Source: a virus. From it: 64,000 nt of DNA. The translations under genes were made by a program, and so were the position numbers. The stretch is taken from positions 1-64,000 of the IMG/VR virus record IMGVR_UViG_3300048904_000222, one strand, 5' to 3'. Positions 1,526-45,862 of this stretch are shown piece by piece (position 1 is the first letter of the stretch; each line of letters opens with the position of its first letter). The notes beneath the pieces were generated by a model. It saw only the letters and a program-made list of their open reading frames with translations. It made no database searches and was not told the origin of the DNA.

Positions 1526-3061
1526 TTATGTCCCGTTTGTCGTACCGCTTCCGATAAGCGAACCTTCGTGGAGAACCCGATAGCGAGCTTCGTCGCCAAT
1601 GTGGTCTTCCGAATCCGTGTCAACGTCGTCCGGATCTGTTTCGTCGCGTGGCAGAACTGGTACGAGGTTCTTGAAGTACGTGCAATTCTTAAAAACGAAC
1701 ATGCCCGGCAAACGGCGCGGCAACGGGTTTCCTTGCTTGTCCACCGGATGCACATTGTTCAGCATCTGGCGCATAGCCGACCAACCCGCCTTTCGGCTTC
1801 CCGGGTTCTTGTTCGATCGTTGCCATTTTACACCAGGATACATCTGCCCATTAACTCTGACATTCTTCCCCATAAGCGCAGCCACGCTTTTGCCGTTGAG
1901 GCCGTCCCAGATACTGTTGTCGGCTGGCCCCGGAACCACACGCTTATAGATGCCCATATCAAGCTCGCGCTCGACAATGCCTTCGGCAATAACTTCTGGC
2001 GTAATACGGAGACCTTCATTCTCCTTGCCGCTTGTGCCATACCATTCAGCAATACGGAACAAGTCACCTTTGATAGTGCTCATCCACGTACCGTCAGGCA
2101 GCAGAACATCGCTGCCGTCACTGCGCGCCCACCAGCCCACACTGAACGGACGGCTTTCGCCGTGGTCGTAGCTACGATCGATCTTCCAGCTTGTGGGAAT
2201 CTTAAATGGTTCGACGTAGTTAAATTTCTCAATCCATACGTCGTCAAACATACCACCGGAAACTACATCCCAACTACCGCCAAGCCACGCCTTCTTTTTG
2301 TTCAGATCGGTCATCTTTTCCAGGTTTGCAACATAGATCGGGCTCAGGTATTTGTTCTCCTTATAAGACCCGAAAATGCGCGTCCTGGTAATGACAATGT
2401 CTTCCTTCTGTTGTGTCTGCGGGTTGAAAACGTCAGGCACAATTTCTCGATAAATCTTTCCCGGGATCTTGTTCGCAATGAACATGTTCTTGACCCAATT
2501 GTGGCCTGCGCCAAATGGGTTCGTCGTTGCAAACACTTCAAGCGGGATTGGCGGGAGCAGAACCTCGTTACCGGCTTCGTCTTCGATCGGATAATTCTCC
2601 GGCAAGAAAGACGAGCGATTACACGACATCATCTGCTCATACAGATGCGGAGTAGGGTACTTAGTAAGTTCGTTCCAACCAATGAAGGGGAACTCTTGAC
2701 CGTGATACCCCCAATAGTCGGAGTCCTTTTTGATGGCTCGGAACAGAAGTTCTTCGCCAGTGGGCCAGACCCAACGATAATCAGATTTCGACGCAAGGAA
2801 CTTTGCCCCGTCCTTGAATAGCGGAAACCACCGCATTGACTTGGCAACCAAGTCATCCAAGTTCTTGTATTCACGGTCAAAGATGATACCTCGCCAGAAA
2901 CCGCCGTACCCTCTTCCCACACGCATGCGGAACCGCATGAGCTGAGCATCGGTCTTTCCCGGGCCTCGGGAGCCGTCGTAGAGGATCTGTGTTGCCGGGC
3001 AAGACAGAGCGAGTGTCTGTGAGCCCGGCAACGGTTGCCATACAACACGAGGTCCAGCCAT
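1526..3061 (-). CDS. terL: Terminase large subunit
   Basis: 511-aa ORF with Walker-A-like DGSRGPGKTD near the N-terminus and the size and layout of phage TerL. The ATG overlaps the terS stop (TAATG) and the portal gene follows 2 nt downstream. Confidence 0.9.
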   Translation of the reverse strand: MAGPRVVWQPLPGSQTLALSCPATQILYDGSRGPGKTDAQLMRFRMRVGRGYGGFWRGIIFDREYKNLDDLVAKSMRWFPLFKDGAKFLASKSDYRWVWPTGEELLFRAIKKDSDYWGYHGQEFPFIGWNELTKYPTPHLYEQMMSCNRSSFLPENYPIEDEAGNEVLLPPIPLEVFATTNPFGAGHNWVKNMFIANKIPGKIYREIVPDVFNPQTQQKEDIVITRTRIFGSYKENKYLSPIYVANLEKMTDLNKKKAWLGGSWDVVSGGMFDDVWIEKFNYVEPFKIPTSWKIDRSYDHGESRPFSVGWWARSDGSDVLLPDGTWMSTIKGDLFRIAEWYGTSGKENEGLRITPEVIAEGIVERELDMGIYKRVVPGPADNSIWDGLNGKSVAALMGKNVRVNGQMYPGVKWQRSNKNPGSRKAGWSAMRQMLNNVHPVDKQGNPLPRRLPGMFVFKNCTYFKNLVPVLPRDETDPDDVDTDSEDHIGDEARYRVLHEGSLIGSGTTNGT

Positions 3062-4703: not shown

Positions 4704-4978
4704 TGTGGGTCTCCGGCCGGATCTTGCGGTTGGTCTTTCGGTTCCAGTTTGACGCGGATCAGTCGCGCGACGAGTGTGGTCACCAGCGCCAGCGCACCCA
4801 CCCAGCGCGTGGTCCCGCTCGGCAGCGCGTCTTTCAGGTCTTGGGGAATTTGGTGCCAGACATCGAGCAGCGTCGGCCCGAAAATGAAGAATGCGCTCCA
4901 CGCGCCAGCAAACCACACGGAGCTACTACGCTTGAGCCGCGAGACTTCAGCGGCGAGCTCGATTCGGATACGGTTCAT
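4700..4978 (-). CDS. Holin (two predicted TMDs)
   Basis: 92 aa with two hydrophobic segments (VWFAGAWSAFFIFGPTLL; WVGALALVTTLVARLI) and a charged C-terminus. Lies immediately upstream of, and is translationally coupled to, the endolysin gene. Confidence 0.7.
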   Translation of the reverse strand: MNRIRIELAAEVSRLKRSSSVWFAGAWSAFFIFGPTLLDVWHQIPQDLKDALPSGTTRWVGALALVTTLVARLIRVKLEPKDQPQDPAGDPQ

Positions 4979-5294
4979 TCTGTTGGCCCCTTACAAAGCC
5001 GCCGTTGACGGCCCCGTTGAACATGAGTTGGTCGATCTTGTTGTTGAGATCCCGCAACTGGCTGATAACTTCGGATCGCATTTCGGTTTGAGACGCTTCA
5101 ATCCGGCGGAAATGGTCTTCCTGGCTTGTGTTGACTTGCTCGATAAGCGATACACGGCTTTGCAGGTCTTTAATCTGCGTCACACCGTAATACGCAATAC
5201 TTGCAAGCGTGGTAACGACGGCGATAATCGTGGGGAGATTAACCGTCCCATCGAACCAATTTCTGCGGGTTGGATTTTGCGATGGTGTGCTCAA
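4947..5294 (-). CDS. Membrane-anchored coiled-coil protein (possible lysis regulator)
   Basis: 115 aa with a single TMD (LPTIIAVVTTLASIAYYGV) followed by a heptad-like segment. Overlaps the holin start by 32 nt. Confidence 0.5.
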   Translation of the reverse strand: MSTPSQNPTRRNWFDGTVNLPTIIAVVTTLASIAYYGVTQIKDLQSRVSLIEQVNTSQEDHFRRIEASQTEMRSEVISQLRDLNNKIDQLMFNGAVNGGFVRGQQNEPYPNRARR

Positions 5295-5351
5295 AATAAA
5301 ACCTCCGTAGCGATTGCCAGGAGGTTACGATATTTAACAGTTAAATTCGTA

Positions 5352-5991: not shown

Positions 5992-6501
5992 TTACTGGCC
6001 GGACACCTTGTAATTTTCCGGCTGGTCGTCGGTTCGAGAATGCATGGATTTCGGCTTTCGGTTGCAGGTGAAACCAGCGTCGCGCATGGCATTGTAAACC
6101 TCTTCGCTGATTTGGCACCGGACCCCGATAGCCGCCGTTTGCAGCGCGGCCGCATTCTTGGCATCGATCGTGGATTGCCGAGCCAATTCAGCGGCCGCAA
6201 CCTCCAGCACGCACGACGGGCTGTCCTTGCTTGCGCCGCCCGCGATGCTGAAACCTGCAACGGCGACGCCTGCCTGCGCAGTGCTTGCGCAGTTCATCTG
6301 TGAGAAACTCGACGCATACGCGCCGAGGATCGGTGCGCTGACGTTTCGAATCGTCTGCGACGTATGCTCCGGCGTCTGCGAAAACTGAATGCTGCCTTGT
6401 GCAACAGACTGCGAAGTTGCTTCCTGTTGCGCACTGGAACTTGCCGCTTGCGCGAATGCCAGTGACGGGAACAAGAGTGCCGTGAACAGAATCTTTTTCA
6501 T
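5992..6501 (-). CDS. Secreted protein of unknown function (Sec signal peptide, 4 Cys)
   Basis: 169 aa starting MKKILFTALLFPSLAFA-QA, a classical signal peptide. The mature part is Ala/Ser/Gln-rich with four cysteines. Confidence 0.7.
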   Translation of the reverse strand: MKKILFTALLFPSLAFAQAASSSAQQEATSQSVAQGSIQFSQTPEHTSQTIRNVSAPILGAYASSFSQMNCASTAQAGVAVAGFSIAGGASKDSPSCVLEVAAAELARQSTIDAKNAAALQTAAIGVRCQISEEVYNAMRDAGFTCNRKPKSMHSRTDDQPENYKVSGQ

Positions 6502-38318: not shown

Positions 38319-38392
38319 CGTGAATGCGTCATGTTAAAGTGCATTCACGTTTGCAAAAACACACCCGACCCGATTACATTTCACTGGAGAGC

Positions 38393-39025
38393 ATGATGAG
38401 CGACAAGACCCCCGAGCAACTGGCGGCAGAACAGGCAGCGGCGGCCGCTGCACAAGCGAAGGCAGCAGAAGCGGCTGCCGCGAAGGAAGCGAAGGCCCAG
38501 GAAGCGGCGCGCAAGAAGGAAGAGCGCGAAGCTGCCAAGGCGGCCAAGCTGGCAGAAGCCGAAGCGAAGAAGGCCGAACTCGAAGCGGCCAAGGCTGCCA
38601 AGGTCGCGGAAAAGGAAGCCGCGAAGAAGGCGAAGGAAGACGAGAAGGCCCGCAAGGCGGCCGAGAAGGAAGCGGCGAAGGCGGCGAAGCAGAAACCGAA
38701 GATGCCCGAGCAGAACGGCGTCCGCCGCCCCGGTCCGGACGGCGAGTGCGGCAAGGCGTGGGCGGTGTTCGACAGCATCTCGCAGTCGCAGAATGCACCG
38801 TGCGCGATCTCGCAAGCCATCACCGTCGCCAAGGCGATGGAGCCGCCGCTCAACGAAGGCAACCTCCGCACCGAATACGCGCGCTGGAAGAAGTTCAACG
38901 GCCTGACCGGCAAGATCGACGCGCCGAAGACGCCGGAGCAGATCGAAGCCGAAAAGGCAGCGGCAGCGAAGGCGGCGGAGCTGGCCGCGCAGCAGCAAGC
39001 GGCAGCGCAGCACCCGCAAGCGTAA
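38393..39025 (+). CDS. Ala/Glu/Lys-rich (histone-H1-like) protein with paralog-family C-terminal domain
   Basis: Trimmed to ATG 38393, preceded by GGAGAG. About 100 aa of AAKEAKAQEAARKKEE-type low complexity are followed by QNGVRRPGPDGECGKAWAVFD...NEGNLRTEYARWKKFNG. Confidence 0.6.
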   Translation: MMSDKTPEQLAAEQAAAAAAQAKAAEAAAAKEAKAQEAARKKEEREAAKAAKLAEAEAKKAELEAAKAAKVAEKEAAKKAKEDEKARKAAEKEAAKAAKQKPKMPEQNGVRRPGPDGECGKAWAVFDSISQSQNAPCAISQAITVAKAMEPPLNEGNLRTEYARWKKFNGLTGKIDAPKTPEQIEAEKAAAAKAAELAAQQQAAAQHPQA

Positions 39026-39246
39026 TGCGACGGCCCGCGCTGACCGTTTGATGGGCGACTGCGCGGCCGTAGTATCAGGGGATGCGCTTTTGCGGCGTAT
39101 CTTAAACGAAGGCTTCTTAAACCCTCGCCCTGACTTTGGTGTAAAGTGTATTGCCGTGAAGGTGCTGTATGTGAGAGTCCAGCATCTACACCCTCTGGAT
39201 ACGTGGAGGTTTCCACGTTATAAAGGACTTGTTCCATCCAGATTTT

Positions 39247-39323
39247 CCGAGTGTAGCGCAGCCCGGTAGCGCATCTGATTTGGGATCAGAGGGTCACAGG
39301 TTCGAATCCTGTTACTCGGACCA
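39247..39323 (+). tRNA. tRNA-Pro (anticodon UGG), CCA encoded
   Basis: Manual cloverleaf. Acceptor CCGAGTG/TACTCGG (one G-U pair), U8-A9, D-stem GCGC/GCGC, anticodon stem TCTGA/TCAGA. The anticodon loop is TT-TGG-GA and the variable loop is GGGTC. T-stem ACAGG/CCTGT with loop TTCGAAT, discriminator A, then CCA. 77 nt. Confidence 0.9.
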
Positions 39324-40079
39324 GTTTCGGGTCATCTGTTTGGTTTCTTTTTGTGTCCGCGCGCAAACAGCAGATGGGTGACCCGAGCCGTGGTGGTGGC
39401 AGTTCGGCCATAAACAGCCGGGCCAAAGCCAAACGCGCCGTGACGGTCACGGAACCGTGGCCCCGGGTAGAAACGGGGCGCTTACCTTGAAGCACCCGAG
39501 CTGACCGGACATCAGTAGTGGCGCGTGAGGCTTGTCCCCTTGCCCGCAGAAGCTCAACCAGACGGCCTCAGAAACCAGAGGGTAGTCGGGTGTTTCAAAG
39601 TGGGCGTACCAGGAAGCGCCTTTCGTCCTCCTTCGCATACCAATTTGGTCGTTGGTGCGGTCGTCACAGCGGAGGGCGCTTCCTGGTGCCGTGCACCTGT
39701 GCGCTAAACCTGTGCCGCGGATACGTCTGCACCACGGGAGAGATGCTGGAAGTCCGATAAGATGCGCTGGCGTCTTGCGCACATGCGGGGAAGCACTGGT
39801 GAACCCGCGCCGTAGTCCATTTCGCTTAAGACTTTAAACTGTAGCGGGTGCGGTATCGTGGTGGCGGCTTGTTCCGCAGACTTACGGCCGTACACTTCGC
39901 GGTCACCACAAGTGGTCGCACGACACCAATCGCGCTTACGTGATAAAACTGTGCGCGGTCGGGCGATTGCGCCGGGTCGACATATCACACTTCGGTGGAG
40001 ATGAACGTCGCCCGGCGCAAGTTCGGCTACAATTAATCCAGTCAACCTGCCCTAGCTGGGCCACCTCACTGGAGCTATA
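39324..40079 (+). ncRNA. Candidate large structured noncoding RNA (or long structured leader) downstream of tRNA-Pro
   Basis: About 750 nt with only short, mutually overlapping ORFs in all six frames, all of Arg/Cys-rich nonsense composition. Multiple strong stems are present. ACCAGGAAGCGCC (39608-39620) pairs with GGCGCTTCCTGGT (39675-39687), extendable to about 20 bp. CCGTGAC-G-GTCACGG lies at 39438-39452 and CCCCG-GGTAGAAA-CGGGG at 39461-39478. An imperfect stem joins 39328-39342 and 39365-39386. Strand is assumed from the flanking genes. Confidence 0.4.
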
Positions 40080-40859
40080 ATGCCCGTCATCAATATCCAG
40101 CCGCGCGAGAAGCTGGATCATTTCTCCCAAGATTTCCTCGAAGTACATTCCATTTTCGACACGATCCAAGGTGAAGGCCCGTTCGCCGGCCGCGCTGCCG
40201 TGTTCGTGCGGCTGGCTGGGTGTAACCTGCAATGCCCCGGTTGCGACACCGACTATACGGGCAATCGGGCAAAGATGGCGACGCCCGAGATTGTCATGGA
40301 AGTCAACAGCATGGTGAGCCAGCGGCGTGAAACCAACGTGACACCGCCACTTGTGGTTATCACGGGTGGGGAACCGCTTCGCCAGAACATCACGCTTCTG
40401 TGTGAGATGTTAGTCACTGCGGGTTGCCAAGTCCAACTCGAAACGAACGGGGTGTTGCCGCCTCCGCCGGGACTTCTGGATATTTGCACTGCAGAGGAAT
40501 ACCTCTGTTTTCCTGCGAATGTGCCGAGAATTCTGCATCGTGAATCTGGATTGTTCATCGTTGTGTCGCCGAAAACGCATCGCATCAACAGCCAGATTGC
40601 CAGCTACGCAAGCGCGTACAAATACGTCGTGAATGAAGAGCAAGGAACCGACGGCCTGCCGAACGTCGCGCTTGAAAACCGAACGAACGGCCCGCTGGCC
40701 CGGCCGCCGGAATGGTGGCGCGGCCCCGTGTACGTGCAGCCGCAAGACGAGCAAGACGAGGCTCGCAACCGTCGAAATCTCGACACCGCAATGGCGCTGT
40801 GCCGCAAGCACGGTTACATACTTCAAGTACAGCTCCACAAAATCATCGGGGTGGAATAA
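40080..40859 (+). CDS. queE: 7-carboxy-7-deazaguanine synthase (radical SAM)
   Basis: 259 aa. IQGEGPFAGRAAVFVRLAGCNLQCPGCDTDYT carries the CX3CX2C radical-SAM cluster in the QueE context. GGAG lies upstream. Confidence 0.85.
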   Translation: MPVINIQPREKLDHFSQDFLEVHSIFDTIQGEGPFAGRAAVFVRLAGCNLQCPGCDTDYTGNRAKMATPEIVMEVNSMVSQRRETNVTPPLVVITGGEPLRQNITLLCEMLVTAGCQVQLETNGVLPPPPGLLDICTAEEYLCFPANVPRILHRESGLFIVVSPKTHRINSQIASYASAYKYVVNEEQGTDGLPNVALENRTNGPLARPPEWWRGPVYVQPQDEQDEARNRRNLDTAMALCRKHGYILQVQLHKIIGVE

Positions 40860-44483: not shown

Positions 44484-44918
44484 ATGAAGCCCGTACTGCA
44501 TCCCAGCAACACGCGCACGCTCGACGCTCCGAAGCACAATGCCACAAGCGGAAAAATTGTTCCGATCGGCATTACGGACGTGCTGGACGGCGGTATCCCG
44601 TATGTGGTCAGCTTCTGGCAGCCGTCTGCGGGCGAGCTCGAGTGTTTGCAGCACGGCGGCAGCGTTAGCCTGTGGTTGCTGGGCCAAACGATGCCGGTCA
44701 CGGCGATTTCGGTCGACGGCAAAAAGACAATCGACAGTATGCCGCACATCGGCGGTTTCGACGGTATGGACGCAGACCGTCGGCCTGCGGGTTGGACTGT
44801 CGAAGAATGGAATCTCGGTTCGTGGTTGGCTGCTGCACTCGACGACCCGAAAGCCTGCGCTGAGTTCAAGCGCGACATTCAAGCATGGTTCGACATGCTG
44901 GAGTCGCGTAAGAAATGA
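44484..44918 (+). CDS. Hypothetical protein (144 aa) immediately upstream of dpdA
   Basis: Trimmed to ATG 44484, preceded by AAGGAA. The stop overlaps the dpdA start. Confidence 0.5.
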   Translation: MKPVLHPSNTRTLDAPKHNATSGKIVPIGITDVLDGGIPYVVSFWQPSAGELECLQHGGSVSLWLLGQTMPVTAISVDGKKTIDSMPHIGGFDGMDADRRPAGWTVEEWNLGSWLAAALDDPKACAEFKRDIQAWFDMLESRKK

Positions 44919-45862
44919 TCGGGTTTCAGTACAACCTGTATCTGGCCGCCGTGTACACGAACAACTACATGCGCGGCCAACGTCTTTACGAAGACTTCAA
45001 CGATCGCGAAAAGCTGGTTGCGGATACGGCGTTACCACACATCCTCGAATCCTGGCACTATGTTGGCGCGCAGCGATACGTGGACGCCATGCGGGCAAAC
45101 GGCGCACAAATCTTCTTGGACAGTGGTGCATTCTCCGCATACACGCTTGGCGTGAAATTGCGCGTGGAGGACTACGTCGGATATATTCAGAAGAACGTTG
45201 ACATCCTTCGTAAGGAAGACAATGTCGTCATGGCATCGGTGCTTGACGGTATTGGAGACCCCCTCGAAACTTGGCGCAACCAGACAGCAATGGAGGCGAT
45301 GGGTGTGCGGCCGCTGCCGTGCTTCCACGCGGGTGAAGATGAACGATATCTTGAACACTACGTTTCAAAGTACGAATATATCACCCTTGGCGGGATGGTT
45401 GGAGTTAGCACAAAGCAACTCTGTACGTGGCTCGATCGAGTGTGGGGCAGATACCTTGTGGATGGCAGCGGTCGAGCTCGAATCAAAGTCCATGGATTCG
45501 GCATCACGGCTCGATCTATTATGGAACGCTATCCTTGGCACTCAGTTGACTCTTCTTCCTGGATTCAATCCGCTTCCTTCGGTTCCATTGAAACCCCTGA
45601 GCATGGGCCTATCAGCGTTTCCGAGAAAAGCCCAGCACGTCACGATGCTGGACAGCATCTGACAACCCTCACTCCGCTTGAGCAGGACTATCTGTATCGG
45701 AAACTTGAAGAGGCGGGGTTCACATACGAACGTCTATCGACTGTTTATCAGTCACGCGCAGCGTATAATCTATGGGCCTATGGCGTAATCAACGCCAGCA
45801 TCAACGCTATGAAGGCGAAACGCGATGGCACTTTCGGGGCCGAAGTTATGGAACTCTTCTAG
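44915..45862 (+). CDS. dpdA: DpdA-family DNA 7-deazaguanine transglycosylase (TGT-like)
   Basis: 315 aa. FLDSGAFS, ITLGGMVG, VHGFGIT and HSVDSSSW fit the phage DpdA / queuine tRNA-ribosyltransferase-like TIM-barrel pattern. It is co-located with preQ0 pathway genes. Confidence 0.75.
   Translation: MIGFQYNLYLAAVYTNNYMRGQRLYEDFNDREKLVADTALPHILESWHYVGAQRYVDAMRANGAQIFLDSGAFSAYTLGVKLRVEDYVGYIQKNVDILRKEDNVVMASVLDGIGDPLETWRNQTAMEAMGVRPLPCFHAGEDERYLEHYVSKYEYITLGGMVGVSTKQLCTWLDRVWGRYLVDGSGRARIKVHGFGITARSIMERYPWHSVDSSSWIQSASFGSIETPEHGPISVSEKSPARHDAGQHLTTLTPLEQDYLYRKLEEAGFTYERLSTVYQSRAAYNLWAYGVINASINAMKAKRDGTFGAEVMELF

Follow-up and report, generated by a model that had tools for sequence, protein, structure and literature searches.

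A predicted structured RNA region around tRNA-Pro and a separate queE leader motif in a Queuovirinae-like phage genome

Introduction

What occupies the interval between the tRNA-Pro gene of IMG/VR virus record IMGVR_UViG_3300048904_000222 and queE, the first gene of its 7-deazaguanine cluster? We analysed positions 1 to 64,000 of this record (hereafter the window), in which the transfer RNA (tRNA) gene ends at position 39323 and queE begins at 40080. The gap between them (39324-40079) comprises 756 nucleotides (nt) without a credible gene. An earlier reading of these letters (the original prediction) proposed that the gap encodes a large structured RNA, possibly of a new class, that might be transcribed together with the tRNA. 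Here we report that positions 39026-40079 appear to form a conserved, structured non-coding RNA region on the plus strand, predicted to represent a previously undescribed family, and that the last ~45 nt before queE are a separate leader motif.

Results

The gap aligns between three phage lineages

Four other assemblies (L001-L004) contain the window sequence at 100% identity. The homologous gap was found at the same position in just two further distinct contigs, which we reached through their QueE homologues (66-68% identity): L005, with tRNA-Pro at 5225-5301 and queE at 6001, and L006-L008, with the tRNA at 176-252 and queE at 1039. The tRNA-Pro of L005 and L006 is at the same place as in the window, is 83-90% identical to it and has a fully compensated acceptor stem.

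In the three-way alignment, invariant blocks alternate with variable, indel-bearing stretches, with indels found at helix tips and in a single variable segment only. Identity among aligned non-coding bases is 65-71%, compared with 65-71% for queE DNA and 63-76% for queC DNA, and the 150-200 nt nearest queE are 81-84% identical to the relatives, versus 65-68% for queE itself. Neutral sequence at such divergence would not align.

The plus strand carries a conserved and compensated fold

For the window copy, the plus strand has a minimum free energy (MFE) of −346.7 kcal/mol (z = −6.5 against dinucleotide shuffles), compared with z = −1.6 for the minus strand. The RNAalifold consensus of the three lineages contains 199 pairs in 27 helices, 46-47 of which pairs show double-sided (compensatory) changes. 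A count of 47 compares with 3-9 when pairing partners are slid and with 19.1±4.1 in column shuffles, and 93.7% of paired cells hold standard pairs, compared with about 40% after the 3' partners are slid by 1-3 columns. The consensus energy is −175.8 kcal/mol, far below the −113.4±5.7 of a null of 60 column shuffles that preserve gap and conservation patterns (z about −11), and the minus strand reaches only −118.4. G·U pairs account for 99 of the 536 paired cells (18%). Two helices are capped by tetraloops: H25 by UUCG in the window and UGCG in L005 and L006 (UNCG in all three lineages), and H17 by UACG, except in L005, where the loop is UUUG. Helices H20, H21 and H25 change length at their tips while their stems remain unbroken.

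The energies, covariation, G·U content, UNCG caps and tip-located indels together indicate that selection has acted on a plus-strand RNA rather than on DNA or protein, and we regard it as highly probable that the region is a selected RNA structure. The proposal of a large structured RNA beside a phage tRNA, possibly of a new class, is supported by a strand-specific conserved fold with compensatory changes in three lineages.

Hairpins formed in DNA, as at a replication origin or a packaging or recombination site, would also account for a non-coding region with many inverted repeats, set within the replication module and adjoining a tRNA gene. Such a DNA-level element is very improbable given the strand specificity of the signal (−175.8 versus −118.4 kcal/mol), the G·U share and the UNCG tetraloops at helix tips. 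Moreover, the region holds no iterons or significant direct-repeat families, and the turning points of GC skew are near 20 kb and 50 kb, away from the gap.

The region is a series of local helices and domains

The predicted elements are as follows, from 5' to 3' (bp, base pairs).

39026-39246, plus strand: 5' structured segment between the stop codon of an Ala/Lys-rich gene and the tRNA (alignments A4/A5)
39247-39323, plus strand: tRNA-Pro(UGG) with an encoded CCA end
39327-39386, plus strand: H1/H2 trailer hairpin right after the tRNA; outer stem of ~16 bp, inner UUUGUG/CGCAAA, invariant CGCGCGCAAAC
39387-39488, plus strand: variable lineage-specific segment, non-alignable between relatives (alignments A1/A2)
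39489-39596, plus strand: Domain A; closing helix H7 (39489-39508 / 39575-39596) around H8/H9 and a small hairpin
39514-39554, plus strand: H8/H9 within Domain A, loop CUUGUC
39608-39687, plus strand: long hairpin H11-H13 with conserved tip UGGUCGUU, longer in the window than in the relatives
39684-39809, plus strand: Domain B (H14-H18), including hairpins H17 and H18
39822-39893, plus strand: H19 (UCGCUUAAG..CUGUAGCGG, nearly invariant) and H20 (39848-39867 / 39875-39893, tip of varying length)
39899-39956, plus strand: small hairpins H21-H23, of which H23 (39932-39956) resembles H19
39957-40028, plus strand: hairpin H24/H25 of ~32 bp with a C(UUCG)G cap, 98-100% of cells paired

The structure extends ~220 nt upstream of the tRNA, and a functional tRNA-Pro gene is thus embedded in ~1.05 kilobases (kb) of structured RNA. 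The 5' segment contains a hairpin at ~39030-39071, a hairpin GAUGCGC..GCGGCGUAUC followed by CUUAAACGA, a small hairpin (ACUUUG-GUG-UAAAGU) and, at ~39158-39192, a covarying hairpin whose loop GUAUGUGAGAGUCC is invariant. Double-sided changes occur in 21 of its 58 predicted pairs, and its consensus energy is −37.3 kcal/mol versus −19.7±3.7 for the null (z about −4.7) and −21.5 for the minus strand. By eye, one hairpin of the 5' segment recurs in the distant locus L023, as GAUnnCnG..CnGnnUAUC followed by U(U/G)AAACGA.

ARAGORN and Rfam agree that tRNA-Pro is the sole tRNA of the 64-kb window and place it at 39247-39323, as originally read; its cloverleaf fits the Rfam covariance model (66.6 bits, threshold 29 bits) and its anticodon is UGG. 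The stem that had been noticed right after it is real, at 39327-39342 / 39371-39386: H1 is kept in L006 with three double-sided changes and is mostly deleted in L005, which retains only H2. Two hairpins noticed further on, CCGTGACGGTCACGG (39438-39452) and CCCCG-GGTAGAAA-CGGGG (39461-39478), are present in the window but sit in the single segment that does not align between relatives.

The ~700 nt downstream of the tRNA contain ten or more helices or small domains, each conserved independently, of which H24/H25 is the last. In Domain A, 12 of 36 pairs show double-sided changes and long unpaired blocks are invariant (CAGUAGUGGGCG, GCUCAACC and AGGGUAGUCGGG). The perfect 13-nt inverted repeat at 39608-39620 / 39675-39687, which the original prediction had listed, extends to 18-nt arms with 89% complementarity, and its helix H11 has four double-sided pairs; the remaining inverted repeats that had been listed are likewise all present where they were placed. 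Eight double-sided pairs occur in H16-H18 and four double-sided changes in H20, where pair 576:634 is GC, UG or UA. The part containing H19 and H20 also includes the invariant blocks AAACUGUAGCGGGU and CGUACACUU.

H24/H25 is the most conserved part of the region, and even there pair 753:810 is UA, GC or AU and pair 755:808 is CG or UA; in L005 and L006 the hairpin has three extra base pairs and a UGCG loop. We infer that H24/H25 marks a 3' boundary or a processing site, possibly for RNase III.

Some elements resemble one another. The likeness of H19 and H23 corresponds to a 20-nt direct repeat (D1, 39823-39842 / 39933-39952, 75% identical), with both loops ending in AAACUGU, and the loops of H9 and H20 have CUUGU(C/U) in common. 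These likenesses hint at internal duplication of RNA modules.

The region matches no known RNA family or gene

Cmscan against Rfam, at gathering thresholds for the whole window and at an expectation value (E) of up to 10 for 38900-40300, returned the tRNA and noise only; in the latter interval, group I and group II introns, RNase P, the transfer-messenger RNA tmRNA, other ribozymes and riboswitches gave no match. Membership in GOLLD or ROOL, which had been raised, is therefore not upheld, as neither is matched even at E≤10. The sigma-70-like sequence TGGATA-N17-TATAAA, which had been taken as a promoter for a joint transcript, is present at 39196-39224, but it fails a promoter consensus scan and is not conserved in the two relatives.

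Between the CCA end of the tRNA and queE there is, as first read, no credible open reading frame (ORF): the longest is 113 amino acids (aa), and the ORFs overlap in several frames. A decayed protein-coding gene, which had been named as an alternative to exclude, is rejected on three grounds. No reading frame is conserved between lineages, the proteins inserted at this position in neighbouring lineages have no tblastn similarity to the gap (E>2), and the ORFs of the gap have no Pfam or PHROG match. The idea of a decayed tRNA array was dropped because the Rfam tRNA model matches just one tRNA even at E≤10. A small minus-strand protein over H24/H25 was also considered and rejected: the translations are alike only through near-invariant DNA, the ORFs have different extents and lose all similarity beyond the block, and the substitutions, though non-synonymous, compensate base pairs.

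More generally, the gap might be a neutrally decaying remnant of a protein gene, a tRNA array or a mobile element such as an intron or a miniature inverted-repeat transposable element. Relatives do have inserted genes at this position, and an imperfect 13-nt direct repeat (AGTTCGGCCATAA / AGTTCGGCTACAA) occurs at 39401 and 40020. Neutral decay would not be expected to leave conservation equal to that of the coding neighbours together with compensatory changes, and neither an intron nor a second tRNA was found at E≤10. With the frame, tblastn, Pfam and PHROG results just given, this makes decay very improbable as well.

Promoters within the invariant blocks or at TAnAAT (40028-40033) were rejected since there is no −35 element, the spacing varies by 6 nt, and a tRNA or a terminator adjoins the leader in relatives. 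As base-pairing targets of the invariant blocks, the rest of the window offers chance matches of 9-10 nt only.

Searches for further copies of the RNA yielded none beyond L005 and L006. Exact and gapped DNA patterns drawn from the invariant blocks found only chance 17-18-mers in IMG/VR viral contigs, the window's own contig alone in JGI metagenomes and nothing in GTDB genomes. Nor did blastn against GenBank phages (50,697 records) match within the RNA. Nhmmer and a covariance model of Domain A (R1) detected no further homologue in 80 QueE-anchored IMG/VR loci, R1 matching the window, L005 and L006 only. Three new contigs were recovered with an N-terminal QueE fragment, none of them with the RNA. 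A search with the protein encoded upstream of the tRNA was uninformative, probably because gene callers favour an opposite-strand ORF in its low-complexity part. In one of the assemblies identical to the window over the RNA region (L004, 1230-2063), the QueE call has 277 aa and matches 78% of the query at 97% identity; the likely cause is a frameshift or a misassembly close to the 3' end of queE.

The interval upstream of queE holds cargo that varies between lineages

The window is a siphophage-like genome related to Queuovirinae, with a DNA polymerase ~49% identical to those of phages of the Nonagvirus/Seuratvirus type. All genes from ~20 kb to 50 kb point rightward, and the tRNA and gap lie inside this plus-strand block, which runs through primase, ligase, SSB, a Cas4-like exonuclease and a helicase; then queE, queC, YdjM, queD and folE; then DpdA and DNA polymerase. 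A gene set of this kind makes 7-deazaguanine DNA modifications (PMC6884629). The flanking genes are:

38324-39025, plus strand: Ala/Lys/Glu-rich low-complexity protein with a conserved C-terminal domain (MPEQNGVRRPGPDGECGKAW..., phrog_18634)
40080-40859, plus strand: queE (7-carboxy-7-deazaguanine synthase), first gene of the preQ0/7-deazaguanine cluster
downstream of queE: queC, a YdjM-like gene, queD (PTPS) and folE, with DpdA at 44915-45862

A longer spurious ORF (38374-39237, minus strand) overlaps the upstream gene, and gene callers may be annotating this ORF; the protein search did not recover the upstream protein of the window itself.

The interval between the Ala/Lys-rich gene and the queE leader motif differs in content from lineage to lineage. 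In the window, L005 and L006 it holds tRNA-Pro and the 700-nt RNA. In L023 (4714-4845), the position of tRNA-Pro is taken by a tRNA-Thr(GGU) with a 56-nt intron-like insert in the anticodon loop, detected with the ARAGORN intron option only. In L025 (4325-5008), the first ~25 codons of queE (MHINIQPIEKLD...) are duplicated and followed by a gene for a 201-aa HNH endonuclease (phrog_953, E=8e-60), with the complete queE at 5001, which looks like insertion of a homing endonuclease at the 5' end of queE. An HNH-like ORF stands at the same place in L127 (seen by eye, not scanned), and a DUF4214 gene in L026. Elsewhere tRNAs abut the queE leader without the 700-nt RNA, namely in L072 (2873-2948, Thr), L080 (2717-2877, Asp and Met) and L126 (6-81, Thr), so that a tRNA upstream of queE is a recurrent arrangement. 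Because the interval holds different cargo in other lineages, and the que operon with its leader is present elsewhere without the RNA, the 700-nt RNA itself looks like acquired cargo.

A separate leader motif precedes queE

The original prediction took the whole gap up to queE as one candidate RNA, but its 3' end belongs to a different and widespread element:

40037-40079, plus strand: queE leader motif, directly before the queE ATG at 40080

In the window, helix P1 pairs UCCAGU (40037-40042) with ACUGGA (40068-40073) and covers the GGA of the Shine-Dalgarno sequence GGAG (40071-40074); it encloses J1/2 CAACCU, P2 GCCC-UAGCU-GGGC (40049-40061) and J2/1 CACCUC. The general motif consists of P1, J1/2 (A/C)AACCU, P2 (whose sequence and length vary and which usually begins GC..GC), J2/1 YACCUC(C), CGGAG and the start codon, where P1 by definition includes the Shine-Dalgarno sequence and the start codon lies 5-9 nt downstream.

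When the 95 nt before queE were compared, about 50 of the 90 related loci proved to have the motif, without exception immediately 5' of queE, including L023 (4949-5001), L025 (4274-4328), L026 (2384-2441) and many of L028-L107 (~2940-3005). An exact consensus search of 2.9 million IMG/VR contigs returned 18 matches, all directly 5' of queE (17 confirmed by tblastn and one at a contig end). About 27 distinct sequences, each folded independently by MFE, adopt this architecture too, and in them the Shine-Dalgarno sequence is overlapped by the 3' strand of P1. P2 covaries at eight of nine modelled pairs, and P1 occurs as CCG/CGG, GGG/CCC, CCGG/CCGG and UCCAGU/ACUGGA. In L025 the motif precedes the duplicated 5' end of queE, which confirms that it belongs to queE.

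Every element of the motif is recognisable in the window, L005 and L006 on inspection and in MFE folds. With a covariance model of the majority type (R2), L006 obtains 16.4 bits and L005 14.7 bits (E 0.1-0.3), and the window fails the E=1 cut-off; the window copy is therefore a divergent variant, with a P1 of 6 bp. No Rfam model, those of preQ1 riboswitches included, matched the motif in the window (E≤10), in 20 motif-bearing loci or in L075 (2880-3020, E≤10), and in the literature on phage 7-deazaguanine genes we found no connection to a riboswitch. A role as a general phage promoter was rejected, as the motif occurs once in 64 kb. From its position and pairing, the motif is a candidate riboswitch or translational operator of the 7-deazaguanine pathway, ligand sensing and control by a protein being equally possible.

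A canonical intrinsic terminator (a GC-rich hairpin and a T-run) ends 5-12 nt before the motif in L032, L034, L043, L058 and L076 (~2920-2960) and in L023 (~4925-4945). This spacing leaves no room for a sigma-70 promoter, and queE in these relatives would depend on read-through or on a promoter overlapping the terminator.

As the original prediction also allowed, the whole region might be a long cis-acting 5' leader of the que operon, whose hairpins control read-through, processing or stability of the queE mRNA with no function in trans. The region is always contiguous with queE, H24/H25 and the leader motif, which lie nearest queE, are its most conserved parts (81-84%), and the motif masks the Shine-Dalgarno sequence. 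On the other side, relatives with the same operon and leader motif lack the 700 nt, invariant unpaired blocks occur up to 590 nt from the start codon, and unrelated cargo is found at this insertion hot spot. We consider a cis-acting leader unlikely overall; it is nevertheless the main rival because no terminator precedes queE and conservation peaks beside it.

Discussion

The explanation we favour is a stand-alone accessory RNA beside tRNA-Pro, followed by a separate queE leader, to which we assign a probability of roughly 0.55. Transcription of the region would run rightward and include the neighbouring replication and nucleotide-metabolism genes. Processing of the tRNA, by RNase P at its 5' end and by RNase E or exonucleases at its 3' end, would free the downstream RNA. 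The long, near-perfect hairpins H1, H11 and H24/H25 might stabilise its ends or be cleaved in RNase III fashion, which would detach the RNA from the queE mRNA. The released molecule would be a stable accessory non-coding RNA, acquired at the insertion hot spot, and by analogy may act in trans on some partner in the manner proposed for GOLLD and ROOL. Translation of queE would be controlled separately by the small leader motif.

The choice of a stand-alone RNA over a cis-acting leader is, taken by itself, evenly poised. The former is favoured because the RNA is dispensable in sister lineages, has invariant single-stranded blocks far from queE and lies in a context like that of GOLLD and ROOL.

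Several observations weigh against this explanation or the evidence beneath it. Neither a promoter nor a terminator was identified by promoter scanning and comparison with the relatives. The RNA is always directly upstream of queE with no terminator in between, which fits a cis-acting leader equally well. The covariation comes from three independent sequences, too few for statistics of the R-scape type, and RNAalifold itself favours covarying pairs; the structure conservation index is a moderate 0.58. Finally, the three sequences contain no conserved long-range helix, closure of a multi-stem junction or pseudoknot. The 5-bp closing helix proposed by RNAalifold is weak, and the long-range pairings considered, I4 and I6 among them, were rejected as not conserved or within chance. 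The architecture resembles a chain of local domains, unlike that of the ornate RNAs, and may not amount to a single 'ornate' RNA.

On the sequence evidence, the 700-nt RNA is best described as a putative new family of a known general kind, namely a large, structured, tRNA-adjacent phage RNA distinct from GOLLD and ROOL. A bolder proposal, that the locus contains two undescribed classes, a third independent class of large phage RNA acting with tRNAs and a new riboswitch class in the queE leader, seems to us doubtful. If it were true, a 0.7-1 kb RNA with an embedded tRNA might assemble into a higher-order particle or bind a host factor, and the queE motif would sense a 7-deazapurine intermediate (preQ0, preQ1 or 7-carboxy-7-deazaguanine, CDG), providing feedback control of phage DNA hypermodification.

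Few bacterial or phage RNA classes larger than ~500 nt with conserved structure are known, all of them unusual; GOLLD and ROOL assemble into nanocages made of RNA alone. A tRNA-linked large RNA in unrelated phages of proteobacterial type (Queuovirinae-like) would mean that the pairing of tRNAs with large RNAs arose more than once, and would offer a new, compact test case. The leader motif, which is better sampled than the 700-nt RNA and directly testable, is a candidate for the first regulatory RNA over phage 7-deazaguanine DNA modification, an anti-restriction pathway.

Comparison with known systems

GOLLD and ROOL are large phage RNAs that often occur near tRNAs, and tRNAs are sometimes located inside the GOLLD linker (PMC5737381, PMC12286853). 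The RNA described here resembles them in being phage-borne, heavily structured, located beside a tRNA gene and probably co-transcribed with it. GOLLD and ROOL measure 0.6-0.8 kb, and at 700-1050 nt the present RNA falls within or above the ~600-800 nt that mark the GOLLD type. Just as the GOLLD linker may contain tRNAs, tRNA-Pro here lies inside the structured region. The sequence and helices are nevertheless unrelated. The Rfam model of GOLLD, which represents its conserved 3' domain, is not matched even at E≤10, and neither is that of ROOL, which has six multistem junctions as well as three pseudoknots, in contrast to the lack of conserved long-range or pseudoknot pairing here. Furthermore, the present RNA is found in three lineages of Queuovirinae-like phages only.

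The queE motif is comparable to preQ1 riboswitches (classes I-III), which are likewise small structured leaders directly before a gene of the preQ0 pathway, in which the Shine-Dalgarno sequence is sequestered by a helix and unpaired nucleotides of an internal loop are conserved. It differs from them in its architecture of P1, a 6x6-7 internal loop (AAACCU / YACCUCC) and P2, with no A-rich tail pseudoknot, and in the lack of any Rfam match.

The tRNA region of phage T4 encodes stable RNAs (species 1 and 2, rnaC/rnaD) that are non-coding, co-transcribed with tRNAs and freed by tRNA processing. Species 1 and 2 are ~120-140 nt long, compared with 700-1050 nt and many domains in the present RNA. 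In the early mRNAs of phage T7, RNase III processing hairpins, long and with small bulges, separate the functional units of a polycistronic transcript. H1, H11 and H24/H25 (20-32 bp) resemble these hairpins and may be cleaved in the same way, although the T7 sites are single hairpins whereas the present RNA is a 700-nt array with invariant single-stranded blocks.

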